A stretch of DNA of 64,000 nt from Candidatus Poriferihabitaceae bacterium (GTDB lineage: Bacteria; Pseudomonadota; Gammaproteobacteria; Arenicellales; Poriferihabitantaceae), in contig OZ244914.1 of the NCBI GenBank assembly GCA_965221795.1, positions 826,030-890,029 on the forward strand, given 5' to 3'. Both the position numbers and the translations under genes were made by a program. The notes beneath the pieces were generated by a model. That model made no database searches, was not told the DNA's origin, and saw only the letters and a program-made list of their open reading frames with translations. This document shows, one piece after another, positions 5,708-45,319 of the stretch (positions within the stretch are counted from its first letter, which is position 1; each line of letters begins with the position of its first letter).

Positions 5708-6364
5708 ATGAGCGATGACACTTCATCCGATCGCGCGTACAACGTGATCACCCGGGGATTCGGTTATCTCAACCGGATCCGCGAAATCCGCCCGCCCGCG
5801 GGCCCCTCGTACCTCGCCTGTGACGTGGCCCTGCTCCATGGGCTGGCGGACCGGGTCGAGAAGATCCGGTTCTCGTGCGTGATCCGCGGCTCATCGGCCG
5901 TGGCGATCGTGCGGCAGCACTTCACCACTGCCGACGGCACCGTGGCGTCGCCGGAGAGGCCGGTGATGGCCAGCCTGAGCCTCGGCGGCCTCCGTGCCGA
6001 GACCTTCGTCTACCGCAAGGGCGAGAAGCAAGGGCAGACCGGCATCGCCCTGCGCTCGACCCTGCTGGCCATCGAATGGCTGCGAATCGGTCGTCAGGTC
6101 ATCGACCTGAACGCCGGTCGGTCGGCGAGCGAGCCCGCGGAGCGGCCAGCCCCGGTGCCGAAAGAACCGGCGTTTGTCGCCGAGATGCGGGCCGAGGTCC
6201 GCCAGTCGGGCACGGTGCAGTTGGCGAAGGATCACCCGGAGTTCGAGGAACGCCGGGCCTTCCTGCGCGATCACGGCTTCACCTGGAGCCGGTCGCAAGC
6301 GGCCTGGGTCCGCAAGTCGCCCCCCGAGGCGGGGACGACGCCGGAACCGGAGGCACCGTTCTAG
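5708..6364 (+). CDS. DUF3577 / STY4534-family ICE-associated protein
   Basis: FGYLNRIREIRP..YLACDV motif, remembered from the DUF3577 proteins of PFGI-1/ICEclc-type elements. High GC. Lies just downstream of tRNA-Asn. Start chosen at the internal ATG (MSDDTSS). Confidence 0.6.
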   Translation: MSDDTSSDRAYNVITRGFGYLNRIREIRPPAGPSYLACDVALLHGLADRVEKIRFSCVIRGSSAVAIVRQHFTTADGTVASPERPVMASLSLGGLRAETFVYRKGEKQGQTGIALRSTLLAIEWLRIGRQVIDLNAGRSASEPAERPAPVPKEPAFVAEMRAEVRQSGTVQLAKDHPEFEERRAFLRDHGFTWSRSQAAWVRKSPPEAGTTPEPEAPF

Positions 6365-6527
6365 CGCGAAGTACGACGGGGGAAGTCGACGGCCTTTCGA
6401 GGCCGTCGCTTCCCGCGATTTGCCAATCCATGGGCCAGTGGCCCATTCCCCCGCACGGGACGATTTCGTTCCCGGTGGGGCACGGTCGACTCCCGTGCTT
6501 TTCTTTTGTCCCCTTGAGGAGTAGACT

Positions 6528-6830
6528 ATGTCCACCCATTCGGAAAACGCCGACATTCAGGCGTATGAAATCATGAAGAAACGCGGTTTCGAAACTGGCG
6601 ACATCGCCAAGCTTGCCAAGTATCTCGACCGGCACCAGAAGAGGACGATGCAGCCTTTTCTGGACCGGATTGATGCCCGGTTCGATCAACTCGAAGCCCG
6701 TCTTCGGGCGGAGCTGGTGTCCAAGAAGGAAGCCCGCTGGACGCTCGGTCTCCTGGCCGCGCTGGTAGCGGTGGCGGCACCAGAAGCCCTTGATCAAGTC
6801 GCCGAGGTGTGGCAATTCTTCAAGCGCTGA
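6528..6830 (+). CDS. small coiled-coil protein with a C-terminal TM helix (DUF1640-like)
   Basis: 100-aa ORF with a coiled-coil segment (RIDARFDQLEARLRAEL) followed by WTLGLLAALVAVAA. A decayed paralogue lies at 60603..60854. Confidence 0.4.
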   Translation: MSTHSENADIQAYEIMKKRGFETGDIAKLAKYLDRHQKRTMQPFLDRIDARFDQLEARLRAELVSKKEARWTLGLLAALVAVAAPEALDQVAEVWQFFKR

Positions 6831-6861
6831 CCCCCCGAGGCTCCCGTGCGGAACCTTTCCA

Positions 6862-6891
6862 GACCCCGACTTCGGTCGGGGTTTTCTTTTG
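6862..6891 (+). terminator. Rho-independent terminator
   Basis: GACCCCGAC-TTCG-GTCGGGGT hairpin followed by TTTCTTTTG, 30 nt after the 6830 stop. Confidence 0.6.
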
Positions 6892-7176
6892 CCACCGGCT
6901 CGACTTTCCTACCCTGGTAGAAAACCGGCGCGCTGTCAATAGCGAAAGTTCATTGAATTTTAAAGGAAAAAAGTGCCCGGACTTTCCCTCGAGAAGCTTG
7001 AATAGGGAAATCGGCATGAAAAAGGGCAGTTTCCGGGCCACCCTGATTGATCGATAACTAACCGATATCTACCAAGCGGGACACTTACCGTCATATCGCA
7101 TCGGCGCAAAAGATTTCCGGTCAACAGCTCGTGCTTCCGGTAAGGGTCATTCGTCCGATCCGGATCCCGGTTTTTT

Positions 7177-7198
7177 GGGGGGGGGGGGGGGGGGGGGG
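7177..7198. repeat. homopolymeric G22 tract (C22 on the minus strand)
   Basis: Counted directly: 22 consecutive G. Lies between the convergent genes 6528..6830 and 7422..8249. Confidence 0.95.
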
Positions 7199-7421
7199 TA
7201 AGGTCTCGGTATAGCCACGTTGGTGTAGAAGACTGTAAATGAAAGCACTGTTCAACGATTCGGTATTGAGCGTAACGGTGTCGTCCAGATTGAAAGAGTT
7301 GCAAAAGTCTGAAATCATAGGCGAGACCAGTCCGGTATCCTGCCTTCTTAAAACCAAGGTCCAATCCTCCACCAACCGCTGAACAAGGAGAGTATGGCGC
7401 GTTCTGCTTCCCTTTTTTGCG

Positions 7422-8249
7422 TCATGGCATATCGATCTGGGAATTGGCACCTCGTTTGGCAAGAAACGTGCATAGGCTGCAAGCAAGAGCAACGACGAGT
7501 TCAGCCTCTTCGCTGCTTACCGACTGACCTTCTTGAATATGGCGTGCACGACCAGATGCGTAGCCCCAGATTTTTTCAACTGCAGTATCGAGCGGCTGGG
7601 GGAGATTCAGATGGCGGATAAGGCTCCCTAAAGTCCGCTTGGGTTTGCCAGAGACTTCCCGAGCCGTGCATTCGAGAGCGGCCATGACATGCTGGATCGC
7701 ACCCGTTACGTCTGGCTCCGGCCTTCGCGAAATATCCTGTAATGCCTCGCGGATTTCCCTGGCCGAGGACACATGGTCGTTCTCTTCAAGAATTTCTCCG
7801 ACTTGCTTTGTGGTCTTCATGAATGTCTCGGATCCGCGATACATAATCAGGCCATCAGTCATTTGCCAACCGATGCCATTTTCAACAAAGACTTCGTTCA
7901 GTTGCTCCTCAAATCTCTGTGCTCTTTTCATGTCCCAGGGACTAGCCAGGCTCTCGAAGACTTTTTCCGCTATGTCGTATACCTTGAACCATGGGCACCC
8001 GGAAATAAGATAGTACACCTCGTCCGATACGTTGGGATAATCAGTCCAGTTGGTTGGGTCTGGCCGTTTCTGAAGTACAAGGCAAACCACTTGGCGCATG
8101 GGCGTCGGGCCCATCCCCACATCTGCCGCGATCTGCGGAATAGCATCTCGCAATTCTTTCGGCGCATCTTCGCGTAACGAAATCTCCGGTTCTGGTATTC
8201 GATAACCGTGCCGAGTCGAAAACCGGGTTCCTTTGGGTTGCTTATTCAT
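7422..8249 (-). CDS. putative abortive-infection-type protein (AbiJ N-terminal-domain-like, helical C-terminal half)
   Basis: 275-aa ORF. N-terminal FSTRHGY...APKELRDAI and C-terminal DVTGAIQHVMAALECTAREV...WGYASGRARH resemble, from memory, AbiJ-NTD4/HEPN-like defence proteins. Sits beside an R-M cassette. Confidence 0.4.
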   Translation of the reverse strand: MNKQPKGTRFSTRHGYRIPEPEISLREDAPKELRDAIPQIAADVGMGPTPMRQVVCLVLQKRPDPTNWTDYPNVSDEVYYLISGCPWFKVYDIAEKVFESLASPWDMKRAQRFEEQLNEVFVENGIGWQMTDGLIMYRGSETFMKTTKQVGEILEENDHVSSAREIREALQDISRRPEPDVTGAIQHVMAALECTAREVSGKPKRTLGSLIRHLNLPQPLDTAVEKIWGYASGRARHIQEGQSVSSEEAELVVALACSLCTFLAKRGANSQIDMP

Positions 8250-12057: not shown

Positions 12058-13446
12058 TCACCAGTCAACCCGGTTTTCCAGGCAGTTTCGGAACAGATCG
12101 TGGGGTTTCGTAAAGGCAGGGGTTCTGGGGCGCATGTTGTCGTCTGAAATGGTAAGGACCGGAGAGTCCATGAGACCACACCCGGCAATTTGCGTCCACA
12201 CCTTCAGGGAATATCTTCCCCGGGACCAGTCCGAAGTGCAACCGCGCCGCGATCCCGGAATGAGGGCGTAGCCCGAAGGGAGGGATCGCGGCGGCGACTG
12301 CAAAATCCACGCTTCGAGTGCTTCTTTTCGGCCTCGGATGGCAGCCATCTCGACGGCCAGCGATCCAGACCGAAGCCATCGGCCAAGGCAAGGGCGAAAC
12401 CGGCACCATGAGGCCGAGCGAAGCCGCTCCGGCGAGTCACCGGAGTGCCGGGGGCGATCGGGGGACCGCCAGCCGCGTCCGGGGGGAGCCAGCCCACGGG
12501 CAAAGACCTCTGCCGGGGTGCGGTATCCCAGGACCTTCCGAGGCCGACGGTGGAGCCGATTCTCCACCGCCCGCACCGGCGCCGGTGTCACCCGGCGGAA
12601 GTCGGTGCCCTTCGGGAAGTACGGGCGCACCAGGCCGTTGGTGTGCTCGTTCCGGCCCCGTTCCCAGGAATGGTAGGGGGTGGCGAAGTAACAGCCCGCA
12701 TCAAGCTTCTGCGCGATCTCCCGATGCCTCGCGAACTCCTTGCCGTGGTCGGCGGTGCCGGTGTGGACCCGGTCCCGGACCGGACCCATGCGCCGGGTAA
12801 TCGCCTCGGTCACCGCCGACGCGGTCTTGCCGTCCACCCACTCCAGGAACCGGAACTTCGAGCCCCGGTCCACCGCCGACACCAGCGCACCCCGGTGCCT
12901 CGCTCCCATGATCGGTTCGAGCTCCCAGTCGCCGATCCGGCACTTCGCCGCCACCACCGCCGGACGCTCCGCAAGGTCGACCCGATCGGGAATGTGCCCA
13001 CGACCGGCAGGACGCCCCCCGCGCCCGTTCGGCTTCTTGCCCCGACGTCGCCGGCACCGGTACCGGGCTCCTCCGGCCTGCCGGTCGGCCCGCACATGCT
13101 CGTAGATCCACTCCTTCCCCGCTATGACTTCGCCCGGCAACCGAACCCAGCCAGCGATCTGCTCCGGGCTCCATCCTTCCTGCAACCGTCCTGCCGCTAC
13201 CGCCCAGCGCTCGGGCGTCCTCTTCCGGGGCACCGCCGACGCTTCCTGACGGCGGGCCGTGGCCTGGCGGTCGGCCTGCTGATGCCGGTCGCCGCGTTGG
13301 CCACGGTGGCGCAAGGTCTCCCGCGAGATCGTCCCGGGGTCGCGTCCGGGATCGCGGGCGATCTCCCGTTTCGACCACCCCCGATGCAACAGCGCGTGAA
13401 TCGGGCATCGTTCGGCATGGGTCAGGTGATGGTAGCCTACGGGCAT
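12058..13446 (-). CDS. IS30-family transposase
   Basis: N-terminal HTH (LTHAERCPIHALLHRGWSKREIA). DDE region (RIGDWELEPIMG...TADHGKEF...PYHSWERGRNEHTNGL). The ORF runs on past the left IR, so the 3' end is uncertain. Confidence 0.85.
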   Translation of the reverse strand: MPVGYHHLTHAERCPIHALLHRGWSKREIARDPGRDPGTISRETLRHRGQRGDRHQQADRQATARRQEASAVPRKRTPERWAVAAGRLQEGWSPEQIAGWVRLPGEVIAGKEWIYEHVRADRQAGGARYRCRRRRGKKPNGRGGRPAGRGHIPDRVDLAERPAVVAAKCRIGDWELEPIMGARHRGALVSAVDRGSKFRFLEWVDGKTASAVTEAITRRMGPVRDRVHTGTADHGKEFARHREIAQKLDAGCYFATPYHSWERGRNEHTNGLVRPYFPKGTDFRRVTPAPVRAVENRLHRRPRKVLGYRTPAEVFARGLAPPGRGWRSPDRPRHSGDSPERLRSASWCRFRPCLGRWLRSGSLAVEMAAIRGRKEALEAWILQSPPRSLPSGYALIPGSRRGCTSDWSRGRYSLKVWTQIAGCGLMDSPVLTISDDNMRPRTPAFTKPHDLFRNCLENRVDW

Positions 13447-13567
13447 GGCAATCCTCCGTTGGTGAGAAACCGAGATGGTTGGCCATCCTCTGGCCCACTG
13501 CAAGCGGCTTGTCAGCTCACCAGCCAGCGGCTTACAGGGTGTTGCACTTCACACTGGAAAGGGGGTT
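12217..13567 (-). mobile_element. IS30-family insertion sequence, apparently intact
   Basis: Imperfect terminal inverted repeats (CCAGTCCGAAGTGCAAC near 12225, and GTTGCACTTCACACTGG near 13545). Uninterrupted transposase ORF. Three decayed copies occur elsewhere in the window. Confidence 0.7.
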
Positions 13568-23533: not shown

Positions 23534-23657
23534 CTGTCAAAATTATGCCTCGTTTAGAACAAAGCCACAAAAAATGGGCCCATGGCCCATCCAATTCACA
23601 CAGCAAGCACCACCGAAAGTCTTCATCCCGGGAGTGCCAAACCATACCACTTTGCAG

Positions 23658-23683
23658 AAAAACAAAACCCCGCATCAGCGGGG
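23658..23683 (-). terminator. Rho-independent terminator or attenuator inside repeat copy 1
   Basis: On the minus strand: CCCCGC-TGAT-GCGGGG followed by TTTTGTTTTT. Copy 2 has the equivalent at 38089..38114. Confidence 0.6.
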
Positions 23684-23830
23684 TCGCTTTTCAATCCGGT
23701 CAGATTGGTAGCAGGGGCTGGCCACGATGACACCGACCGCTGATCACGGCCCGCGATATAGCCTCTCAACCCGCAACATTAGCCGCGTTACTGCCAACCC
23801 TAGAGGAAGTACGTGACTGTCAGGGCGGAT

Positions 23831-23860
23831 ATTATAACCACTTGGCTCGGCGTTCATCAA
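23831..23860 (-). promoter_or_regulatory. sigma70-like promoter inside repeat copy 1
   Basis: On the minus strand: TTGATG, 18 nt, TATAAT. Directed toward rimP. The same motif occurs in copy 2 at 38262..38291. Confidence 0.5.
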
Positions 23861-24119
23861 GGGGTGGTGTACTGGCACAAGGACCTACGTATGGCATATT
23901 TACCAGCGCCTTCCTGGTTGCTCTTTCCTACAACACCATTCGAGGGGAAATTTGCTGTTAGTCTGCAAGATTTTCCATTAATGTACTTATTGCAAAATTG
24001 AGCAAAAAACTCCGAATAATGGCCATCTGAGATGTCTTTCAGATAATCATCCAGATCAACATCCTTAAGATCTTCCCCACCATCGAAGTCTGGCTGCTTA
24101 ATTTGGTATTCCCCCCTTA

Positions 24120-25667
24120 TTATTCGCTGCTACCAAAGATTTCATCGAATTTGCTCTCGATAGCCAACACTTCTTTGTCAGTAAGTTCCGCAAATTCTTT
24201 TTTGCGAGCGCGTTTTGAGAGTTGGCCGTTATTCTGATGGAGAAAACGAATGAGTAAATCAACCAGCCTATCCGGCATATCGATATAGTGTTTAATAAAG
24301 CCATTGAGCAAATCATATTTCATTAAGTATTCGACTTCTTGCGGCAATGTTTTATTGACCGTCTCTTCCACGCATTCAAAGAAAAATTCGGCCTGTTTGG
24401 TCGCATCAAAATAGCGATAGAGATTTATCGTGTCGTTCAAGACTTCAACATTGCCGTTTTCAGTTGGTCTCCACTCAATCAGTTCAAGTCTGGGTTTGGA
24501 GTAATGCTCCAATGTACGTCTGTAATCATCAATGCGACTCAGGATGATTGCAGAAACTGGAAAAACCAGTCCCCTGGGGACAAAGCCTTTTTCGGCCAAG
24601 ACATGATGAAACAGATAGCGATGTATCCGGCCATTGCCATCTTCAAACGGGTGGATAAAAACAAAACCAAAAGCAATAAGCGTTGCCATAAGAACAGGAT
24701 CATAATCACTATCCGTTAAAAGCTGACTGGTTTCGATTAAACCCGAGAGAAGGCTTTTCAAATCCTCCGCCCGCGCAGAGATATGAACGGGCATCGGCAT
24801 TCCGGTAGTACGGTCATGATCACCCACAAATCCGCCCTCAACGCGAAGGCCAGGCAGGATGAAACGGCTCTCTGCAATGACAATGGATTGCAGATACTCC
24901 AACTCATCCATGCTCAAGGTTCGCTGTCCGGCTTCGCCGATGATCTTTCCCCAGCGCTCAATACGATTATGCGGCGGAGCCTCGCCTTCGATTGTGTAAG
25001 ACGCCCTGGAGTCCTTGAGTAAGAGAAAAGCTGCTGCGCGGCTTAGCAGGTCAGCATGGATTTTTCCAATGTGATCGGCAGCTACCCGCGAGAGACCCAT
25101 AGCGATGAAGCGATCGAGTTTCGCAGTACGACGAATCAGTGGGCAAAAGTCACGAGTGCCCGACAGATTGTTGCGCACACGATGTCGTCTTGAATTTCGT
25201 GATGCTGCCGCATATTGAAGCTTCTCATTGATCAGGGGAACAAAATTCCCGTGAGCAGCATCTTCTAGTTTAAGTGTTGTATCGGTCAGCCACTCATACA
25301 AAAACCAGATACGACGGCTATAACTGCCCGTTGGCATCGCCTTAACAATGTTGACGATTTCTTGCGGATCAATGTCATCAAACAAGGCTTTGAGAATAGC
25401 GAGATCAATGCCTTCATACTTTAAGGCAAAGGTAAGATGGCCTTGCAATGTATCGTCAGGCCTGTGGCGCGGTGTGTATAGCTGCCAGCGCCCCCGCTCA
25501 GCCTTTCTATGCTTCGTTCCTATGGCACAAAGGCTATCCGGCACTGGTACGGCGAGCCTGTGCCCTTCAATCAGTGCGGCATAACCTGCATAGGTCGCAC
25601 CTGACTCCAATGCTTGGAAAGCATGAAAGGTCGTTACACCTCCTGATTTTCGATTATATTGAGCCAT
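24120..25667 (-). CDS. Fic family protein
   Basis: Fic motif HPFEDGNGRIHR. 515 aa with an extended N-terminal region and a C-terminal helical domain. Confidence 0.85.
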   Translation of the reverse strand: MAQYNRKSGGVTTFHAFQALESGATYAGYAALIEGHRLAVPVPDSLCAIGTKHRKAERGRWQLYTPRHRPDDTLQGHLTFALKYEGIDLAILKALFDDIDPQEIVNIVKAMPTGSYSRRIWFLYEWLTDTTLKLEDAAHGNFVPLINEKLQYAAASRNSRRHRVRNNLSGTRDFCPLIRRTAKLDRFIAMGLSRVAADHIGKIHADLLSRAAAFLLLKDSRASYTIEGEAPPHNRIERWGKIIGEAGQRTLSMDELEYLQSIVIAESRFILPGLRVEGGFVGDHDRTTGMPMPVHISARAEDLKSLLSGLIETSQLLTDSDYDPVLMATLIAFGFVFIHPFEDGNGRIHRYLFHHVLAEKGFVPRGLVFPVSAIILSRIDDYRRTLEHYSKPRLELIEWRPTENGNVEVLNDTINLYRYFDATKQAEFFFECVEETVNKTLPQEVEYLMKYDLLNGFIKHYIDMPDRLVDLLIRFLHQNNGQLSKRARKKEFAELTDKEVLAIESKFDEIFGSSE

Positions 25668-31744: not shown

Positions 31745-31826
31745 GGTCTATATATAGACCGCAATATCTATAAATGATCCATATATAGATCATTTTCTTG
31801 ACAAGATATGATGAATCGAGTACTTT
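31745..31826 (+). promoter_or_regulatory. hipBA promoter with palindromic operators
   Basis: Perfect 16-bp palindrome GGTCTATATATAGACC (31745..31760). Near-palindrome ATGATCCATATATAGATCAT (31774..31793). Then TTGACA (31798..31803), 17 nt, TACTTT. Confidence 0.5.
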
Positions 31827-31884
31827 GGTTCATAGAAAGATCATAAAGCATTCTTATGGTCTATATACGATACATTTAAGAACG

Positions 31885-32223
31885 ATGCCAAAGTCTATTA
31901 CACGTACCTACTCCCGCTACAGCCGCGATGCAACCGCATTGCTCGCCGGGCTGATCCGTGCAGCGCGAAAGGAACGCCAGTTGACTACTCAGGAGTTAGC
32001 AGACCGCGCTGGCATTTCGAGAGGATTGCTGCAACGCATTGAAAAAGGCGATCTCAAGTGCGAAATTGGTGCTGTTTTCGAAGTGGCCACCATTGTTGGT
32101 GTCAAGCTTTTTGAGGCTGATGAAAGAGCGCTGTCCAAACACCTGAGCCAGACGAAGGATAAACTAGCGCTATTGCCAAAGTCCGTTCGCAAGAAATCGA
32201 AGGCGGTACGCGATGACTTCTAA
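31885..32223 (+). CDS. hipB: HipB-like XRE-family antitoxin
   Basis: HTH QELADRAGISRGLLQRIEKG. Overlaps the hipA start by 11 nt. Confidence 0.75.
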   Translation: MPKSITRTYSRYSRDATALLAGLIRAARKERQLTTQELADRAGISRGLLQRIEKGDLKCEIGAVFEVATIVGVKLFEADERALSKHLSQTKDKLALLPKSVRKKSKAVRDDF

Positions 32224-33472
32224 CAGCGACAAAGAAGCCTTCGTTTGGATTTGGTTGCCGGACGAAACCACGCCAGTGGTTGCCGGACGGCTGGAAGCGG
32301 ACAATGGCAATGTTCTGTTCAACTATGGACAGAGCTATCTGAAGCGCATCGGCGATCAGCCTTCCGCAATTCCGATCTACGAACCCGAGTTGCCGTTACA
32401 AGCCGGAGCGTTGCCGCTACCGGAAGGATTAACTATGCCCAGTAGTATTCGGGACGCTGCCCCCGATGCGTGGGGTCGGCGTGTAATGATTAACAAGAAG
32501 CTCGGTCTCGAGGGCTCTGATACGGACACCGCCGAGCTGGACGAGTTGACCTATCTGCTGGATTCCGGCTCTGATCGGATTGGTGCGCTCGATTTTCAGC
32601 ATTCACCGACCGAGTATGTACCGCGTGTCGCCAACAACGTCAGCATGGAAGAACTGATTGAATCCGCTGGGCGCGTCGAGAAAGGCGTCCCGCTCACGCC
32701 CGAACTGGATCAGGCATTGTTCCACGGCAGCTCCATCGGCGGTGCGCGCCCCAAAGCCCTGATCCAAGATCAGGGCAAAAAGTATGTTGCCAAGTTTTCA
32801 TCCAGCACCGACCTGTACAGCGTTGTAAAGGCCGAATTTATCGCCATGCGGCTGGCACATCTTGCCGGGTTGAATGTCGCGCCTGTAAAGCTGGTCAAGG
32901 CCGCGAAGAAAGACGTGCTGCTGATTGAGCGCTTTGACCGCCAACAAAAAGATGGAGGCTGGTCACGCCGCGCCATGGTCTCGGCACTAACGCTGCTCGG
33001 GCTGGATGGCATGATGGCGCGCTACGCCAGCTATGAAACGCTGGCCGAAACCATTCGCCACCGATTCACCGACCCGAAAGATACCTTGAAAGAGTTATTC
33101 TCACGGCTGGCTTTCAATATTCTGTGCGGCAACACTGACGACCATGCCCGCAATCATGCCGCTTTCTGGAATGGCAATTCACTGACATTGACGCCAGCGT
33201 ATGACATCTGCCCGCAAGGGCGAACAGGCAACGAGGCGTCTCAGGCGATGCTGATATCAGGCAACAACAATATGAGTCAGCTCAAATCCTGTGTTGAAGC
33301 GGCGAATCATTTCCTGCTCTCGGAGGACGATGCCCGAGCAATCTTCGGCCATTTGACCGAATCCATCGAAAAGCATTGGGACTTGGTATGCGAGGAAGCC
33401 GAATTGAGCGAAGTGGACAGGAAACTTTTCTGGGGAAGGCTGTTTCTAAACCCTTATTCGACTGAACAATAA
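32213..33472 (+). CDS. hipA: type II toxin-antitoxin system HipA-family kinase toxin
   Basis: GSDRIGALDF, GSSIGGARPKAL and the catalytic CGNTDDHARNHA motif. 419 aa. Confidence 0.9.
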   Translation: MTSNSDKEAFVWIWLPDETTPVVAGRLEADNGNVLFNYGQSYLKRIGDQPSAIPIYEPELPLQAGALPLPEGLTMPSSIRDAAPDAWGRRVMINKKLGLEGSDTDTAELDELTYLLDSGSDRIGALDFQHSPTEYVPRVANNVSMEELIESAGRVEKGVPLTPELDQALFHGSSIGGARPKALIQDQGKKYVAKFSSSTDLYSVVKAEFIAMRLAHLAGLNVAPVKLVKAAKKDVLLIERFDRQQKDGGWSRRAMVSALTLLGLDGMMARYASYETLAETIRHRFTDPKDTLKELFSRLAFNILCGNTDDHARNHAAFWNGNSLTLTPAYDICPQGRTGNEASQAMLISGNNNMSQLKSCVEAANHFLLSEDDARAIFGHLTESIEKHWDLVCEEAELSEVDRKLFWGRLFLNPYSTEQ

Positions 33473-34560: not shown

Positions 34561-34819
34561 GTTACACCCTTGTGGCCTCCGAGTCGGACGGTGTCCCACC
34601 GCGGGTGCTTGCGACCCCCTGAAACAGACTTTTCAGGGTCGACTCGGTAACCTCACGCTAGAATGGATCGTCATCGCCAGCGCCAGACAATTCGTCGAAA
34701 TATGCGAGATTCATCTTCTCTTCGAAGAACTTCTTTGCAGTCATGTTCTTGTAAGCAATCCGGTCTTTTCCGACGTTCAGCATTGCAGCAATACGCGACC
34801 GTCCATCTTCGATACGACC

Positions 34820-35759: not shown

Positions 35760-37658
35760 CTACAAGAACCATGGCGCTAATGACTTAGCGCTCACGATGT
35801 TCATGTCGTTAACGTTTTCAAGATGCGAAAACTCCCTCATGAATTTCGCAATAAGCCTTGAATACAGGATCGAAATTGGCTGGGCTTTAGAATTGAACCC
35901 GCGCCAATTAGCGCCTGTCAGATTCAAGATATCCTGAAGACACTCCTTCTTTGTTGCCCATTCCTCTTGTGACTTAATAAAGTCCACGTACAATGGCTCC
36001 GAGACTCGCTTGTGCAGCACCTCTTTTCCGTATTGCAATCCTTCGGCCCATATCAAAAACTCGTTTTTTGATATCTGAACATACGTGCTCTCATAAGGAA
36101 CGCAGGTATTGTGATCGCTAAATCCAAGGAATTTGTGCTTGGTATTTACCCGTATGACGATGACCTCGAACTCGTCCGCTTTTCTGATTTCCGAAACGAC
36201 CGCTTTGATAACTTCGATCTCTTTTCGGCTGATTTTGTAGGGTAGATGCAAAACGAGCGATTTGTAGTGGTCACCAAGCTCGCTTTGCAAAACTTCCTTT
36301 AGATTAGTTTGCAGGCTACCTAGATAGGTTTCTTCGTTGTTCGATGACGAGAGAGGCTTAGTGTATTTGAAGTCGCCACTGGAATCTAAACAAACCGTAT
36401 ACGCGGTATATCTTGTCATATTGCCTTGAACTCTTTCCTGCACACTCCCCAACCCAAAAATCAGGCAGTTGCTTTTGGCAGGCTGTACTAGCCAAGGTGC
36501 GCCTCCAAGCTTGCTAAATATCTGCAACCCAATATTGGATACAGACCATTTCAATTGATCCTTTTTAAAGAAAGTGTCTTCAGTGACAACCTGACAATAT
36601 GCATCGTTTCTCAATGCCATTAGCTTTAGATGGCCGTAGGCGTCGTAAGCTGCTTCTACGCCCTTGAAGCCTTTCGGAAGGACTGCTACGAGCATCACCT
36701 TGCTATTCATGTGGGATGCCTTGAACTGCTGTACACGACCTTCGATAGCTTCTATTGCGTCTGCGTCAAACATGCTTACTAGATGATGCTCAACGATGTC
36801 TTTGTGAATTGGTACAGAGAACATCTTCTCTAAGCCAGAGAACTGACCCGGAAACAACTTGCCAACTAGTCCAAGATAGATATCTCTCGCTAACGACCGC
36901 GTTCTCTCGGTGAAAAGAAAGAGATACCTAACATCGTCATCCATGCGACGGTACGGCCCGTTGGCCCTAATTCCCATGAACTGCGACTTGGCTGTTTGTC
37001 CACCACCAACTAGATAGGTCTTTACATCAAGCTTTTTGGCGGGCAGAGAAGAAAATTCGCTGATAGCAAGGCCGGAATTCGAAAGTAACGGTGAGAGCAC
37101 GTCCTTGGTGAAGTTCTCAAGGGTCGATTTCTTGTCCTTGTAGAAATAGATGTTTGGTTTTCCAGACTTATCGAGAGAGAAGCTTCGGATTTGCGTCTGC
37201 CTGTTAAACGGCTGATCGTCTTTGAGGGAGAACTTGTGTTCAATGAGAAGCCCAAATTGCCTTTTTCCCTTTAGGAAATAAGGCTTGACAATTAGCTCAG
37301 TATTTCCTTCGCCGAACTTCTCTGTAACAAAGCGAACCTCCTTCAGCGTAATGGCCTTCTCAGGAATGTAGTAATCAAGTTCTCCAGCTTCGATCGTTTT
37401 CAGAAAGTCTTGGTATATGAGATGCACTGTCAGAACAGGATTCTGAGAATACTCGAACTGGTACGCTTCGTAACCGTCTCGCTCGACGGTAGATACATCA
37501 AACAACACCCATTCCTCATCACCCTCTTGCGCGGGCAAATTGGCGCGAAAATCCTCGTCCTTCTTAGCAAGAGAACTGTCATGGACACGGATTCGATACA
37601 CTGTTACGCTATTGTCTTGTTTGAGCAGAGGAACAAAGTTCAATGCGATGCTATCCAT
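35760..37658 (-). CDS. prokaryotic Argonaute (MID-PIWI with a ~240-aa N-terminal region), catalytically inactive
   Basis: PIWI hallmarks: NIGLQIFSKLGGAPWLV (KLGGAPW at 36492..36512), NWRGF...PISILYSRLIAKF, and C-terminal APWFL. Catalytic positions are replaced (IFGLGS, LHLPYK). MID Y-K..Q..K pattern (AYGHLK...CQVV...SKLGG). Start is ATG 37658, with GGAGG 8 nt upstream, or 37664. Confidence 0.85.
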   Translation of the reverse strand: MDSIALNFVPLLKQDNSVTVYRIRVHDSSLAKKDEDFRANLPAQEGDEEWVLFDVSTVERDGYEAYQFEYSQNPVLTVHLIYQDFLKTIEAGELDYYIPEKAITLKEVRFVTEKFGEGNTELIVKPYFLKGKRQFGLLIEHKFSLKDDQPFNRQTQIRSFSLDKSGKPNIYFYKDKKSTLENFTKDVLSPLLSNSGLAISEFSSLPAKKLDVKTYLVGGGQTAKSQFMGIRANGPYRRMDDDVRYLFLFTERTRSLARDIYLGLVGKLFPGQFSGLEKMFSVPIHKDIVEHHLVSMFDADAIEAIEGRVQQFKASHMNSKVMLVAVLPKGFKGVEAAYDAYGHLKLMALRNDAYCQVVTEDTFFKKDQLKWSVSNIGLQIFSKLGGAPWLVQPAKSNCLIFGLGSVQERVQGNMTRYTAYTVCLDSSGDFKYTKPLSSSNNEETYLGSLQTNLKEVLQSELGDHYKSLVLHLPYKISRKEIEVIKAVVSEIRKADEFEVIVIRVNTKHKFLGFSDHNTCVPYESTYVQISKNEFLIWAEGLQYGKEVLHKRVSEPLYVDFIKSQEEWATKKECLQDILNLTGANWRGFNSKAQPISILYSRLIAKFMREFSHLENVNDMNIVSAKSLAPWFL

Positions 37659-38003
37659 GTGCATGTCCTCCGTTTCGGCTGCTCGTCAAGTCTTCCAGAA
37701 ATTCGGAAGGTACTTCACCGCTGGTTACCAACAGACGATCTCTAGCCCTCGTAAATGCCACATACAGCAAATGTCGTTCGGTGTCGTAGACTTCTTCCAA
37801 ATCAGCGTTGTCGGCTACTCCTTCTATCCGCTCTTGTGAGGGAATGATTTCATCGTCGCACGCCATGACCACGATCGCTTTGAACTCCAACCCCTTAACC
37901 AAGTGCATCGTGCACAATGCCGCGCTTCTGTGCGCCAAGTAGCTATCCAGTAGCTCGTATGGAATATCGGCTCTTTCTAGCACCGCTTTTGCGCGATCTA
38001 ATT
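37651..38003 (-). pseudogene. C-terminal fragment of a UvrD/Rep-type SF1 helicase
   Basis: TMHLVKGLEFKAIVVM and LLYVAFTRARDRLLV are SF1 motifs V and VI. The 5' end is cut at the edge of repeat copy 2. Its stop overlaps the Argonaute start (ATGGATAG). Confidence 0.7.
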
Positions 38004-38295
38004 GGGGCCCATGGCCCATCCAATTCACACAGCTAGCACTTACCGAAAGTCTTCATCCCGGGAGCGCCAAACCATACAACTTTTCCAGAAAAACAAAACC
38101 CCGCATCAGCGGGGTCGCTTTTCAATCCGGTCAGATTGGTAGCAGGGGCTGGCCACGATGACACAAACCGCTGATCACGGCCCGCGATATAGCCTCTCAA
38201 CCCGCACCATGAGCCGCATTACTGCCAACCCTAGAGGAAGTGCGCGACTGTCAGGGCGGATATTATAACCACTTGACCCGGCGTTCATCAAGGGG
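38004..38295 (-). repeat. copy 2 of the ~290-bp direct repeat
   Basis: Aligns with 23576..23864. Contains the same TTGATG-18-TATAAT (38262..38291), the CTGCTACCA segment and the terminator (38089..38114). A G10 tract follows. Confidence 0.85.
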
Positions 38296-39058
38296 GGGGG
38301 GCGGAGCAGACCGACGGTTGGGTTCGGTTGCCGGGCGAAGGGATGGCGGGGCAGGAGTGGAGGTGCCCGTAGGTGCGGGCGGACCGGCAGGCCGGAGGGA
38401 CGCGGTACCGATGCCGGCGGCGTCGGGTCCAGAAGCCGAACGGGCGCGGGGGGCGTCCTGCTGGACGGGGCCATATCCCGGATCGAGTGGACCTTGCGGA
38501 GCGGCCTTCGGTGGTGGCCGAGAAGAGCTGGATCGGCGATTGGGAGCGGGAACCGATCCTTGGCGCGAGACCCCGGGGGAGCGGGTATCAGCAGCGGATC
38601 GGGGCTCGAAGTTCCGGTTCCTGGAGTGGGTGGAGGGCCAGACCGCGGCTGCGGTGACCGCGACGCTCACCCGGCGTCCGGGTCCAGTCCGGGACCGGGT
38701 CCACACCGGCACGGCAGATAACGGCAAGGAGTTCGCGAGGCATCGGGAGATCGCACAGAAGCTTGATGCGGGCTTTTACTTTGCCACCCCCTACCCTTCC
38801 TGGGAACGGGGCCGGAACGAGCACCCCCATGGCCGGGTGCGCGAGTACTTCCCGAAGGGCACCGACTGCCGCCAGGTGCCCCCGACACTCCGGGCCCTCC
38901 GGTGATCCACCGGAGCGGCCACTCGACCTCCAAGTTCCGAACTCGCCTTTGCCTTGGCCGATGGCTTCGCTCAGGATCACCGGCCGTCGAGATGGGTGCC
39001 ATCTGAGGTCGAAAAAAAGGCGTTCGCAGCGCGGGTGCACTTCGGACTGGCCCCGGGG
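38296..39058 (+). pseudogene. IS30-family element remnant (5'-truncated, frameshifted)
   Basis: Transposase pieces (ADRQAGGTRYRCRRRR, DRGSKFRFLEWVEGQTAAAV, TADNGKEFARHREIAQKLDAGFYFATPYPSWERGRNEH) lie in several frames. A terminal IR sits near 39030-39058. Confidence 0.6.
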
Positions 39059-39831: not shown

Positions 39832-40917
39832 ACCCCCCTTTTCCAGCGTGAGGTGCAACACCCTGTAAGCCGCTGGCTGGCGAGGTGACCAGAAGCTTGC
39901 GGCGGGCCAGAGGATGGTCAACCATCTCGGTTTCTCACCCACGGAGGATTGCCATGCCCGTAGGTTACCACCACCGGACCCATGTCGAACGATGCCCGAT
40001 TCACGCCCGGTTGCATCGGGGGGTGGTCGAAACGGGAGATGGCCCGCGACCTCGGACGGGATCCCGCGACGATCTCGCGCGAGACCTCGCGCCACCGTGG
40101 CCAACGCGGCGACCGGCACCAACCGGCCGACGGCCAGGCCACGGCCCGTCGCCAGGAAGCGTCGGCGGTGCCCCGGAAGATGACACCGGAGCGCTGGGCG
40201 GTCGTGGAAGAACGGTTGCAGGAAGGCTGGAGGCTGGAGCCCGGAGCAGATTGCCGGCTGGGTTCGGTTGCCGGGCCAAGGGATGGCGGGGAAGGAGTGG
40301 AGCTACCCGCACGTACGGGCGGATCGGCAGGCCGGAGGGACCCGGTACCGGTGCCTGCGACGTCGGGGCAAGCAGCCGAACGGGCACGGCGGCCGGCACG
40401 CCGGACGCGGCCACATTCCCGATCGGGTGGACCTTGCGGACCGTCCGGCGGTGGTGGACCGGGGCTCGAAGTTCCGGTTCCTGGAGTGGGTGGACGGGAA
40501 GACCGCGTCGGCGGTGACCGCGGCGATTACCCGGCGCCTGGGGCCGGTTCGGGACCGGGTCCACACCGGCACCGTCGACCTCGGAAGGTTCTGGAGGTTC
40601 GTACCCCGGAAGAGGTCTTTGCCCGTGGGTTGGCTCCCCCCGGACGCGGCCCACGGTCGCCCCTCGACCCCGGCACTCCGGTCCCTCTGGTGATCCACCG
40701 GAGCGGCTTCGCTCGGCCTCCCGGTCCTGAGTGCGCCCTTGCCTGGGCCGATGGCTTCGGTCAGGATTGCCCGCAGTCGAGATGGGTGCCATCGGTGGCC
40801 AAAATGAGCGCCTTGGGGGGCGAATTTTTCGGTCGCCGCCACGATCTCTGCCTTCGGGCTACGCCCTCATTCCGGGATCGCGGCGACTGTTGCACTTCGG
40901 AGTGGAAGCGGGGGTTC
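39832..40917 (+). pseudogene. IS30-family element remnant (both IRs present, transposase deleted and frameshifted)
   Basis: IR AACCCCCCTTTTCCAGCGTGAGGTGCAAC at the left end and GTTGCACTTCGGAGTGGAAGCGGGGGTT at the right. Transposase pieces lie in at least 3 frames. Confidence 0.6.
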
Positions 40918-40971
40918 AAAATAACCTTTGTATAGTCCATAAAACATCTATATGTGATTTATTATAGAGCA

Positions 40972-41310
40972 ATGCCCAAATCTATTAGACGCACCTATTC
41001 ACGTTACAGCCGCGATGCAACGGTATTGCTTGGGGGGCTGATCCGTGAGGCACGTAAAGAGCACAAGCTAACTGCACAGGAAGTAGCCGACCGTGCGGGC
41101 ATTTCCAGAGGCTTCCTGCAACGCATGGAAAAAGGCAACCTCAAGTGCGAAATCGGTGCTGTGTTTGAAGTGGCCACCATTGTCGGAGTGAAGCTCTTTG
41201 ACACCGACGAGATCACTCTTTCCAGGCACCTGAAACAGACCAGGGACAAGTTGAGTCTGCTGCCAAAGTCCATTCGCAGAAAACCCAAGGTGGTACATGA
41301 TGACTTTTAA
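40972..41310 (+). CDS. hipB: HipB-like XRE-family antitoxin (second copy)
   Basis: MPKSIRRTYSRYSRDATVLLGGLIREARKE...QEVADRAGISRGFLQRMEKG. Roughly four-fifths identical to the 31885..32223 product. Confidence 0.75.
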   Translation: MPKSIRRTYSRYSRDATVLLGGLIREARKEHKLTAQEVADRAGISRGFLQRMEKGNLKCEIGAVFEVATIVGVKLFDTDEITLSRHLKQTRDKLSLLPKSIRRKPKVVHDDF

Positions 41311-42562
41311 CGGCGAAAGGGAAGCCTTCGTTTGGATTTGGTTGCCGAATGAGACTACGCCCGTAGTGGCCGGACGGCTGGAAGCTGACAATGACCATCT
41401 CCTGTTCAATTATGGCAAGAGCTATCTGGAACGGGTTGGCGGCCAACCCCCATCAGTGTCAATTTATGAGCCCGAATTACCGCTGCAGGCCGGAATGCTG
41501 CCGCTGCCGAAAGGGTTGACCATGCCTGGTTGTATTCGGGACGCCGCCCCCGATGCGTGGGGGCGACGTGTAATTATCAACAAGAAACTCGGACTTAAGA
41601 ACGCTGGCATGGATACAGCCGAGCTGGGGGAATTGACCTATCTGCTGGAATCCGGTTCTGACCGAATTGGAGCACTCGATTTTCAGTATTCGCCGACCAA
41701 GTACGTACCGCGCTCTGCGAACAACGTCAGCATGGAAGAGCTGATAGAGTCTGCTGAACGGGTTGAAAAAGGCATCCCGCTTACACCTGAACTCGACCAG
41801 GCCTTGTTTCATGGCAGTTCCATTGGCGGTGCCCGTCCCAAAGCACTGATCCACGAACAGGGCCAAAAGTACGTCGCCAAATTTTCTTCTGGCACTGACT
41901 TATACAGCGTGGTTAAAGCCGAATTTATCGCGATGCGGCTGGCTGGACTGGCAGGCCTCAACGTTGCACCGGTCAAACTAACCAGCGCTGCTAACAAGGA
42001 TGTATTGCTCATCAAGCGCTTTGACCGACTGCCCAAAGGTGATCACTGGTCACGTCGAACAATGGTCTCCGCTCTGACCATACTGGGTCTGGACGATATG
42101 ATGGCGCGCTATGCCAGCTACGAAGTATTGGCAGAGATTATCCGCCAGCGCTTTAGCGCCCCGAAAGAAACCCTCAGAGAATTGTTTTCACGTCTGGCGT
42201 TTAACATTTTGTGCGGAAACACTGACGATCATGCGCGCAACCATGCCGCTTTTTGGGATGGTCAGGAACTGTCGCTCACACCGGCTTACGATATCTGTCC
42301 TCAGGGCCGAACTGGCAACGAGGCCTCGCAAGCCATGTTGATCGTTGGAAACAATAATATGAGTCAGCTCAAAACCTGTCTCCAGGCAGCACATCATTTC
42401 CTGTTATCGGAAAAGGATGCCCGCGCAATTTTTGATCAACAGATCACCGCGATAAAGCAGCACTGGAGCGATGCTTGTGACGAAGCGACGCTTACTGAAG
42501 TGGATAGGAAGCTGCTGTGGGGTCGTCAATTCCTAAATGACTTTTCGATTGTTGCGAATTGA
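41297..42562 (+). CDS. hipA: HipA-family kinase toxin (second copy)
   Basis: Same motifs as the first copy (GSDRIGALDF, GGARPKAL, CGNTDDHARNHA). 421 aa. Confidence 0.9.
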   Translation: MMTFNGEREAFVWIWLPNETTPVVAGRLEADNDHLLFNYGKSYLERVGGQPPSVSIYEPELPLQAGMLPLPKGLTMPGCIRDAAPDAWGRRVIINKKLGLKNAGMDTAELGELTYLLESGSDRIGALDFQYSPTKYVPRSANNVSMEELIESAERVEKGIPLTPELDQALFHGSSIGGARPKALIHEQGQKYVAKFSSGTDLYSVVKAEFIAMRLAGLAGLNVAPVKLTSAANKDVLLIKRFDRLPKGDHWSRRTMVSALTILGLDDMMARYASYEVLAEIIRQRFSAPKETLRELFSRLAFNILCGNTDDHARNHAAFWDGQELSLTPAYDICPQGRTGNEASQAMLIVGNNNMSQLKTCLQAAHHFLLSEKDARAIFDQQITAIKQHWSDACDEATLTEVDRKLLWGRQFLNDFSIVAN

Positions 42563-42671: not shown

Positions 42672-43395
42672 ATTCCCCGGGACCAGTCCGAAGTGCAACC
42701 GCGCCGCGATTCCGGAATGAGGGCGTAGCCCGAAGGGAGGGATCGCGGCGGCGACCAAAAAAATCGCGCATCGAACGCTTCTTTTCGGCCTCGGATGGCA
42801 GCCATCTCGACGGCCGGCAATCCTGACCGAAGCCATCGGCCCATGCCAGGGCGAGCTCAGGACCTGGAGGCCGAGCGAAGCCGCTCCGGTGGATCACCGA
42901 AGGGCCCGGAGTGCCGGGGTCGAGGGGCGGCCGCGGGCCGCGTCCGGCAGGACGGCCGCCGCGACCGTTCGGCCTACCGATCGGCCCGCACATGCGGGTA
43001 GATCCACTCCTTGCCCGCCATCCCTTCGCCCTACTGCCGAGCCCGGCCCGCGATCTGTTCCGGGCTCCCGCCTTCTTGCCGCCGGGTCGTCGCCTTGCCG
43101 TGGGTCTGCGGGTGCCGGTCGCCGCGTTGGCCACGGTGGCGCGAGGTCTCCCGCGAGATCGTACCGGGATCCCGTCCGAGGTCGCGGGCCATCTCCCGTT
43201 TCGACCACCCCCGATGTAACCGCGCGTGAATCGGGCATCGTTCGGCAGGGGTCAGGGGATGGTAGTCTACGAGCATGGTCATTCTCCGTGGGTAAGAAAC
43301 CGAGATGGTTGGCCATCCTCTAGCCCACCGCCAGCGCCTTTTCAACTCACAGCCAGCGGCTTAGGGAGTGCTGCACCTCACACTGGAACGGGGGT
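42672..43395 (-). pseudogene. IS30-family element remnant (internal deletion)
   Basis: Both IR-like ends are present, but only about 720 bp lie between them. N-terminal transposase piece LTPAERCPIHARLHRGWSKREMA. Confidence 0.6.
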
Positions 43396-44680: not shown

Positions 44681-45242
44681 ATCTGTGGATAACTTCACCT
44701 TGACCAGACCCCGGGATTCTTGATGGTGATCCATCTATCGGATTTTCGGAATATGGGAGGGACTGGGGTGCAGGATCAGACGCCCGTGCTCCTGGCTGAC
44801 CCGGGCATCCTTATAAGCGGTAAGTACTGATCGGAGATGCTTGGTGAAGGGGCTTATAAACATTACTTGACAAAGATGAAATCGTGTCGCCAAACCGCCT
44901 TAGCCAAAGAGAAGGGCGAATAAAGTGGGGCCGGTGCCGGGCTGATTGCCCATGACGCCCCCTATTGTGGGGAGGATTGCCCTGTGTCAAGCTATCTTTA
45001 TAATTCCCCATTAGAAACGCAAGTTCTGTGATGCAGGAAGCCGGGGAATGGTACGTGAGCAATTGCACAACCGAATGAGCGGATTACTCCACAGCCAATC
45101 CAATGATGCAGCAGTGGAAAATGATGGCTGAGAAGATGGCCGTCATCCGTACAGTGAGCAGGAAAAACTGGACGAACCATCCTCCGAGATTACCAGACTT
45201 TCCGAAGGCGGTCAGACGGCCCGTCCTTAGGCAAAAACAAAA

Positions 45243-45319
<77 letters not shown>

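Follow-up and report, generated by a model that had tools for sequence, protein, structure and literature searches.

The 64,000-nucleotide stretch of DNA considered here, hereafter the window, covers positions 826,030 to 890,029 of contig OZ244914.1 in the genome of Candidatus Poriferihabitaceae bacterium (assembly GCA_965221795.1). It carries on its minus strand a prokaryotic Argonaute (pAgo) gene, a SIR2 effector gene behind it and, directly in front of it, a short open reading frame (ORF; 37651–38028, 125 aa) that reads as the tail end of a UvrD-like helicase. This stub is very probably a pseudogene remnant of a restriction-operon helicase, left at the eroded edge of a decaying tRNA-Met island, and not one gene of a new three-gene Argonaute system. 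The evidence, drawn from sequence comparison, consists of the identity of the stub, its exact joint with a repeat, intact homologues that overlap the pAgo gene in the same way, the allegiance of these homologues to the Res and Mod genes of a restriction cassette, the absence of the lost part from the whole genome and a premature stop in SIR2.

The ancestral island next to the tRNA-Met gene would have comprised Res, Mod and a helicase of ~700 aa, followed, with a stop/start overlap, by a self-contained pAgo–SIR2 pair of the BPAS kind (see below). The left 7–8 kb of this island, with Res, Mod and helicase codons 1–580, has been lost here, and the break at codon 581 meets, with single-base precision, the end of a second copy of the rimP-nusA-infB leader, a unit of 293 bp.

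The helicase stub and its joint with the repeat

The original prediction, which was made from the sequence alone, had taken the ORF for a UvrD-like helicase with motifs V and VI only, and the domain searches bear this out. Pfam places its product in UvrD_C (PF13361, E = 2.9e-15) at profile positions 265–346 of 350, with a further match to UvrD_C_2. Among solved structures, it matches approximately residues 550–630 of PcrA, UvrD, UvrD1 and Rep, which is the motif V–VI region, and in the alignment its TMHLVKGLEF and LLYVAFTRARDRLLV pair with TLHAAKGLEF and LAYVGITRAEEEL of the PcrA/UvrD-type helicases. As in other members of superfamily 1A (SF1A), motifs V and VI are present within the UvrD_C domain. 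Compared with the SF1A helicases UvrD, PcrA and Rep (PDB 1pjr, 2is1, 1uaa), the stub corresponds to the motif V–VI part of domain 2A but lacks motifs Q and I–IV and domains 1A, 1B and 2B. The N-terminal ATPase core (Walker A/motif I, Ia, II, III and IV) is absent, and Pfam gives no PF00580 or AAA_19 match. Since it has neither Walker A/B nor motifs I–IV, the stub should be unable to unwind DNA, nor would it be expected to bind or hydrolyze ATP.

The stub is 77% identical to residues 581–699 of an intact 699-aa helicase from a Pseudomonadales metagenome-assembled genome (MAG; locus L020), and ~580 codons (1–580) are gone, in agreement with the earlier estimate of 500 or more. In a HMMER search of the whole library, relatives of the stub matched from query residues 7–9, in keeping with the joint described below, through to the C-terminus of proteins of 464–616 aa. 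Compared with its intact homologues, the stub has also suffered a 2-codon deletion (DSY--LAH) and a C to F change in YVACTRAR, both at conserved places.

Upstream of the helicase sequence lies a repeat, of which there are two direct copies, R1 and R2, of a ~293-bp unit. They are 94% identical and are the sole two copies in the single-contig, 3.64-Mb genome. When the minus strand is aligned to copy 1 and to the L020 helicase gene, the match to the repeat extends through ...GATGGGCCATGGGCCC as far as 38005, and helicase homology begins with the next codon, CAA at 38004–38002 (window, QLDRAKAVLERADIPYELLDSY; L020, ELNRAAAALERSGIPHRLLDSY). The GTG of the stub and the seven codons after it (VNWMGHGP) are thus repeat sequence. 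That the first eight codons come from R2 and that the gene was decapitated at the repeat boundary had both been claimed from the sequence, with the boundary placed correctly to within 1–2 nt. After the hairpin ATGGGCCATGGGCCCAT, copy 1 continues with TTTTTT and leads on to rimP; in copy 2, helicase sequence takes the place of the T-run.

The intact helicase and its Res–Mod cassette

We searched 80 pAgo loci, taken from one-genome-per-species contigs, with the stub and with full-length helicase relatives. In one of them, L020, the pAgo is 79% identical to that of the window and the 699-aa helicase stands directly upstream. A second such locus, the metagenome contig L097, was found from the helicase side; its pAgo is 73% identical to that of the window and is preceded by a full-length helicase of 700 aa. 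Homologous pAgo loci with a full-length helicase upstream, proposed as one way to check the stub, have thereby been found.

The intact protein has UvrD-helicase/AAA_19 and UvrD_C domains and, at its N-terminus, a weak HigB/RelE-like match that falls below the Pfam cut-off; its relatives are named “RelE ... / superfamily I helicase” or “3'-5' exonuclease” by several sources. At least 8000 matches at E < 1e-10 show the family to be large. Upstream of the helicase are a BPTD_3080-family Res gene (NCBIfam NF046055, 1347 bits) and a Mod gene encoding a 930-aa N6/N4 methylase (PADLOC MTase_III PDLC03632, E = 0). In ten of the 11 distinct full-length helicase loci (L020, L097, L098, L099–101, counted as one, L109, L110, L111, L113, L115 and L116), both genes precede the helicase on its own strand, the exception being L114. 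Extra genes stand between Mod and the helicase in L098, L109–L111, L113, L115 and L116. After the helicase come pAgo and SIR2 in L020 and L097, and genes for an OLD-family ATPase, a UvrD-like protein and a Peptidase_U49 protein in L099–101; a DndB-like gene is also found among the passengers of the Res–Mod–helicase loci. In the taxonomic family of the window, the full helicase is present in three genomes, all of which lack a pAgo. A 616-aa metagenomic protein (P0157) has the first ~440 residues of Res fused to the last 200 of the helicase, as judged by tblastn on L020, and represents either a further product of deletion within the cassette or an assembly chimera.

Judged by its gene neighborhoods, the helicase belongs to a type III-like Res–Mod–helicase cassette, of which it is the last gene, and is not a partner of pAgo. 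A similar architecture has been described for ArmD of ARMADA type II, which joins a RelE-like domain to a UvrD helicase of the GajB-like type and is the last gene of a methylase-containing defense operon (Bell et al., bioRxiv 2025, PMC12458937). Compared by described architecture, the intact helicase resembles ArmD in its RelE-like N-terminus, its UvrD domains and its place at the close of a methylase-containing operon. The partners differ, being a BPTD_3080-family Res and an N6/N4 Mod here versus ArmA, ArmB and ArmC there, and the window retains the last 117 codons only.

A shared overlap and the case for a third component

The stop codon of the stub (TAG, 37653–37651) overlaps the start codon of pAgo (ATG, 37658–37656) as ATGGATAG, and the 632-aa window protein (P0001) is consistent with this start. 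The overlap, already pointed out in the original prediction, is not due to chance, as the same ATGGATAG joins helicase and pAgo in L020, with an equivalent 8-nt overlap, ATGAATAA, in L097. It had been read as the signature of an ancestral helicase–pAgo–SIR2 operon. As a statement about gene order this is supported by the full-length helicases upstream of pAgo in L020 and L097; as a statement about a functional system it is not, since the helicase is found in only one of the 80 pAgo loci. The overlap does not hold up as a pAgo signature either. In L099–L101, the helicase stop overlaps the start of another downstream gene, encoding the OLD-family ATPase/nuclease, and the helicase thus overlaps its first downstream gene with two unrelated passengers; the coupling therefore appears to be a habit of the helicase. 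In addition, pAgo has its own Shine–Dalgarno (SD) sequence, GGAGG at 37671–37667, 8 nt before the ATG, and should thus be translated without need of the stub.

Could the helicase nevertheless have been a true third component of an ancestral helicase–pAgo–SIR2 operon, for example by making single strands or guides, so that its loss disabled a three-gene system? The shared overlap is what such an operon would display, and UvrD-type helicases, methyltransferases and type III restriction enzymes are among the proteins enriched in pAgo operons (Ryazansky et al. 2018). This explanation is nonetheless unlikely, because SIR2 is directly downstream of pAgo in 78 of the 80 loci, against the single locus with a helicase, and because the genes upstream of pAgo vary. 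In close relatives they encode HsdS (three times), HsdM, an N6/N4 methylase, XamI, a BsuBI/PstI enzyme, AbiEii and AbiJ. The helicase, for its part, keeps company with Res and Mod, and does so without pAgo in most loci. Finally, in the BPAS system, which consists of a long-B pAgo and the SIR2_2 protein bAgaS, the two genes suffice in E. coli, where a plasmid triggers NAD+ depletion (Song et al., Nat Commun 2023, PMC10620215).

For this pAgo clade, the reported enrichment of UvrD-type helicases, methylases and type III enzymes in pAgo operons can be explained by the present data as a neighborhood effect. In loci L018–L031, the gene upstream of pAgo usually belongs to restriction–modification (R-M), of several unrelated types, or to abortive infection (Abi), and the pAgo–SIR2 pair seems to ride behind R-M operons in general. 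Payne et al. (bioRxiv 10.1101/2024.01.29.577857) have described defense genes that lie within R-M and other multi-gene immune operons or are attached to their ends, and pAgo–SIR2 is one such passenger of the Res–Mod–helicase cassette.

The state of the pAgo–SIR2 module

The pAgo gene is itself intact (Table 1), and the nearest solved relatives of its product are AfPiwi, EcAgo and RsAgo, which are inactive or short pAgos. The SIR2 gene begins 13 nt after the pAgo stop and is interrupted at codon 309 by an in-frame TAA (34822–34820); the PADLOC profile was matched at positions 1–293 of 343 only. Complete SIR2 partners (n = 79) have a median length of 356 aa and range from 342 to 412 aa, apart from two that have 82 and 316 aa; the acidic ...PF end found in the cut-off tail recurs in many of them. 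As far as the genes alone can tell, the module resembles BPAS in having a pAgo followed by a stand-alone SIR2_2 gene, matching the PADLOC pAgo_II and Aga_SIR2 class II profiles. It differs in that its SIR2 ends 53 codons early and is not a full-length effector. Since the conserved 53-aa C-terminal tail is missing, the module would be expected to be nonfunctional or crippled here.

Another locus in the same family, L112 (G046:C1:1995000-2009000), contains at 5919–7483 the remnant of an internal deletion in which pAgo residues 1–322 run straight into SIR2 residues 165–362. Decay of the module therefore recurs.

Erosion of the island

The intact island of L097 shows what has been lost. Its order is tRNA-Met, Res (1024 aa), Mod (930 aa), helicase (700 aa), pAgo (633 aa), SIR2 (362 aa), hipA and a helix-turn-helix (HTH) gene on the opposite strand, and Fic. 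The island in the window has the same order, with DNA matches at tRNA-Met (97%), from the stub through SIR2 (71%), at both hipBA copies and at Fic. Neither the window nor its island contains a BPTD_3080-family Res or a large N6/N4 Mod. When Res, Mod and the helicase were searched against the whole genome by tblastn, matches were confined to the stub, to distantly related housekeeping helicases and to an unrelated pair of Res and Mod; this pair, the only one of its kind in the genome, is located at 3.50 Mb, is 28–34% identical and is not adjacent to the island. Because none of the three is found elsewhere in the genome, Res, Mod and the N-terminal part of the helicase have been deleted rather than moved.

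The edges of repeats are a classic place for misassembly, and one might suspect that 94%-identical copies misled the assembler and that the helicase is really intact. This is very improbable indeed: the genome is a single contig that holds no other helicase, Res or Mod of this family to be joined, and the two copies, differing at ~6% of positions, are distinct enough for an assembler to tell apart. At its opposite edge, moreover, R2 also adjoins a truncated remnant, in this case an insertion sequence (IS)-like member of a GC-rich 1.35-kb repeat family.

How the joint arose can be narrowed down to some extent. A simple internal deletion starting from an R-like element that already stood upstream of Res is excluded by L097, since there is no R-like sequence and no promoter-like or terminator-like site between tRNA-Met and Res in that locus. 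A scenario in which the entire island was simply duplicated in tandem and its first copy then decayed is disfavored, the hipBA copies being only 77% identical versus 94% for the repeat copies. Apart from hipBA, the region upstream of R2 has just two matches of ~75 nt to the island. The presence of a second hipBA between tRNA-Met and R2 suggests either two related islands in tandem or an integrated circle that carried the repeat, a whole-island duplication being less likely. Illegitimate recombination, accretion of tandem islands and Campbell-type integration of a repeat-carrying circle may all be considered as routes to the joint.

Several other features of the region deserve mention. R2 is flanked by two hipB-like/hipA pairs, the one listed in Table 1 and another at 40954–42562, whose DNA identity of 77% is consistent with two related tandem islands. 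The 1.35-kb repeat, which has ~70% GC amid sequence of mostly 45–55% GC, occurs in the window at 12216–13565 (the reference copy), 38290–39020, 39835–40935 and 42673–43394. Genome-wide, it gives ~100 blastn high-scoring segment pairs (HSPs), including dozens of near-full-length copies, at only 85–90% identity. The ORFs inspected in it resemble an IS30-type transposase, as judged from an HTH_38 match and from our reading of the C-terminal part, and appear to be frameshifted.

Weighing a remnant against a retained gene

Certain observations weigh against the stub being a mere remnant. Its frame has no internal stop or frameshift, and its dN to intact homologues is 0.12–0.19, which is not above the 0.15–0.21 found among the intact genes (over 117 codons, with dS saturated). 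The truncation is thus either recent or the stub is still under some constraint, two possibilities that the saturated dS and the 117 codons cannot separate. Conservation of the start/stop overlap at three loci would also allow a degree of functional coupling. Lastly, the pAgo tree leaves a nine-member clade unresolved as to whether the helicase-linked loci (n = 3) form one clade, and the common descent of these loci is therefore argued from the shared junction and the synteny of the island instead.

The open frame, the lack of excess dN and the preserved ATGGATAG overlap could also be taken to mean that the stub was kept for a function, either in translational coupling to pAgo or as a 14-kDa C-terminal subdomain acting as a small regulator. 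This is quite improbable. By sequence reading, there is no SD before either possible start, the GTG (38028) or the in-frame ATG (38019), while the GGAGG of pAgo is well spaced; the frame of the stub is closed upstream by a TGA at 38055–38053. In the absence of an SD, the stub is probably translated only scantly. All of the ATPase motifs are gone, conserved residues have changed, and the SIR2 gene downstream is itself broken. We also considered whether short database matches might represent a family of stand-alone C-terminal proteins, but the single look-alike that was checked sits at a contig edge and is an artifact, not a stand-alone gene.

A duplicated rimP-nusA-infB leader

In E. coli, the metY-rimP-nusA-infB leader consists of a promoter, a tRNA-fMet gene and partial terminators, followed by rimP. 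The 293-bp repeat occupies the same place and retains a terminator and a hairpin. Relatives from the genus (G002, G004, G007 and G009) retain the tRNA as well and have in this place tRNA-fMet, a terminator, a GGGCC..GGCCC hairpin with a T-run and then rimP-nusA. The leader differs from that of E. coli in that the tRNA body has been replaced by a non-tRNA sequence with tRNA-like ends, and in that the whole unit is duplicated in this genome, with copy 2 facing the pAgo module. The replacement is shared by two other genomes, G008 (same genus; locus L003) and G022 (same family; locus L010), where a single R-like unit, with the promoter and terminators of the repeat in the window and a similar non-tRNA body, stands upstream of rimP in place of the tRNA. 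In all three genomes, a ~170-nt body with tRNA-fMet-like 5' and 3' ends thus stands in for the tRNA-fMet gene. No Rfam family matches the repeat or the joint at gathering or permissive thresholds, and no tRNA or known small RNA is called there; ARAGORN likewise finds no tRNA within the repeat. The folded repeat RNA is not more stable than shuffled sequence (z -0.7), which supports no special structure beyond the terminator hairpins. The body could be an unrecognized small RNA or an island-borne att/promoter cassette.

The repeat had been credited with both a TTGATG-18-TATAAT promoter directed into the pAgo operon and a terminator, and both were recovered by our scan. The hairpin at 38097–38116 is conserved in the genus relatives, where it lies between tRNA-fMet and rimP. 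Within the stretch scanned (to 24150), R1 carries the sole promoter-like site that precedes rimP, and transcription of rimP-nusA-infB must therefore read through the R1 terminators. Since copy 1 has to be read through in this way and the second terminator of R2 lacks its T-run, read-through into pAgo is plausible, and the pAgo–SIR2 pair, if transcribed at all, would now be served by read-through of the duplicated leader.

Directly after the 3' ACCA of the tRNA-Met gene (window 45233–45243) comes TTTTGTTTTT, a string equal to the T-run of the terminator of the repeat, as if the ~45 nt between the tRNA 3' end and the T-run had been deleted. There is no such sequence after the tRNA of L097.

A more speculative thought is that the helicase acts as a common adaptor, supplying the interchangeable effectors downstream of it with unwound or nicked DNA from the invader, and that the duplicated leader has rewired the module in the window to a NusA-controlled promoter. 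The idea derives from the place of the helicase at the end of the Res–Mod cassette and from the overlap of its stop with the next gene, which is pAgo, with SIR2 behind it, in two loci and belongs to the OLD family in three others; we consider it unlikely.

Table 1. Features of the window that bear on the helicase stub and its island.
Feature	Position	Strand	Basis
Helicase remnant; 117 codons and stop	37651..38004	-	Residues 581–699 of the intact 699-aa RelE-like/UvrD helicase
Repeat-derived codons GTG AAT TGG ATG GGC CAT GGG CCC	38005..38028	-	Sequence reading; alignment to copy 1 and L020
Repeat copy 2 (R2), duplicate of the rimP-nusA-infB promoter/leader	38005..38298	-	Promoter-like site, ~170-nt non-tRNA body with tRNA-fMet-like ends, terminator 1, second hairpin
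Sigma-70-like promoter TTGATG-18-TATAAT in R2, towards stub and pAgo	38262..38291	-	Motif scan; identical site in R1 at 23860–23831
Intrinsic-terminator-like hairpin GACCCCGCTGATGCGGGGTT then TTGTTTTT, between R2 promoter and pAgo	38097..38116	-	Scan; conservation in relatives
pAgo, class II/long-B-like, 632 aa, intact	35760..37658	-	Pfam Piwi; PADLOC pAgo_II 1.5e-194 over whole length; full-length homologues
SIR2_2 effector (bAgaS-like), 308 codons	34820..35746	-	Pfam SIR2_2; PADLOC Aga_SIR2 class II 5.4e-118; alignment to 355–362-aa homologues
Cut-off SIR2 tail, 53 codons ending ...LSGAGDDDPF, then TAG	34658..34819	-	In the same frame as SIR2
hipB-like HTH gene and hipA	31798..33472	+	Syntenic with L097
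Fic-domain gene	24120..25667	-	Syntenic with L097, 74% aa identity
Repeat copy 1 (R1), native place directly upstream of rimP (start ~23533)	23577..23867	-	Second hairpin retains T6 run
tRNA-Met (CAT), downstream of cysS, left edge of island array	45243..45319	-	97% identical to the tRNA directly before the intact L097 island

Implications

The window offers a natural example of how a tRNA-Met defense island may erode, with one end deleted, a nonsense codon in the effector, IS debris, and a duplicated housekeeping leader that now faces the remnant. It also calls for caution, as a start/stop overlap between neighboring defense genes is no proof that they form one system; here, the overlap would have been inherited from a pAgo–SIR2 pair that was appended to the last gene of a restriction operon. 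The wider pattern, in which the Res–Mod–helicase operon appears to serve as a rack for swappable defense genes, deserves study more than the stub itself.

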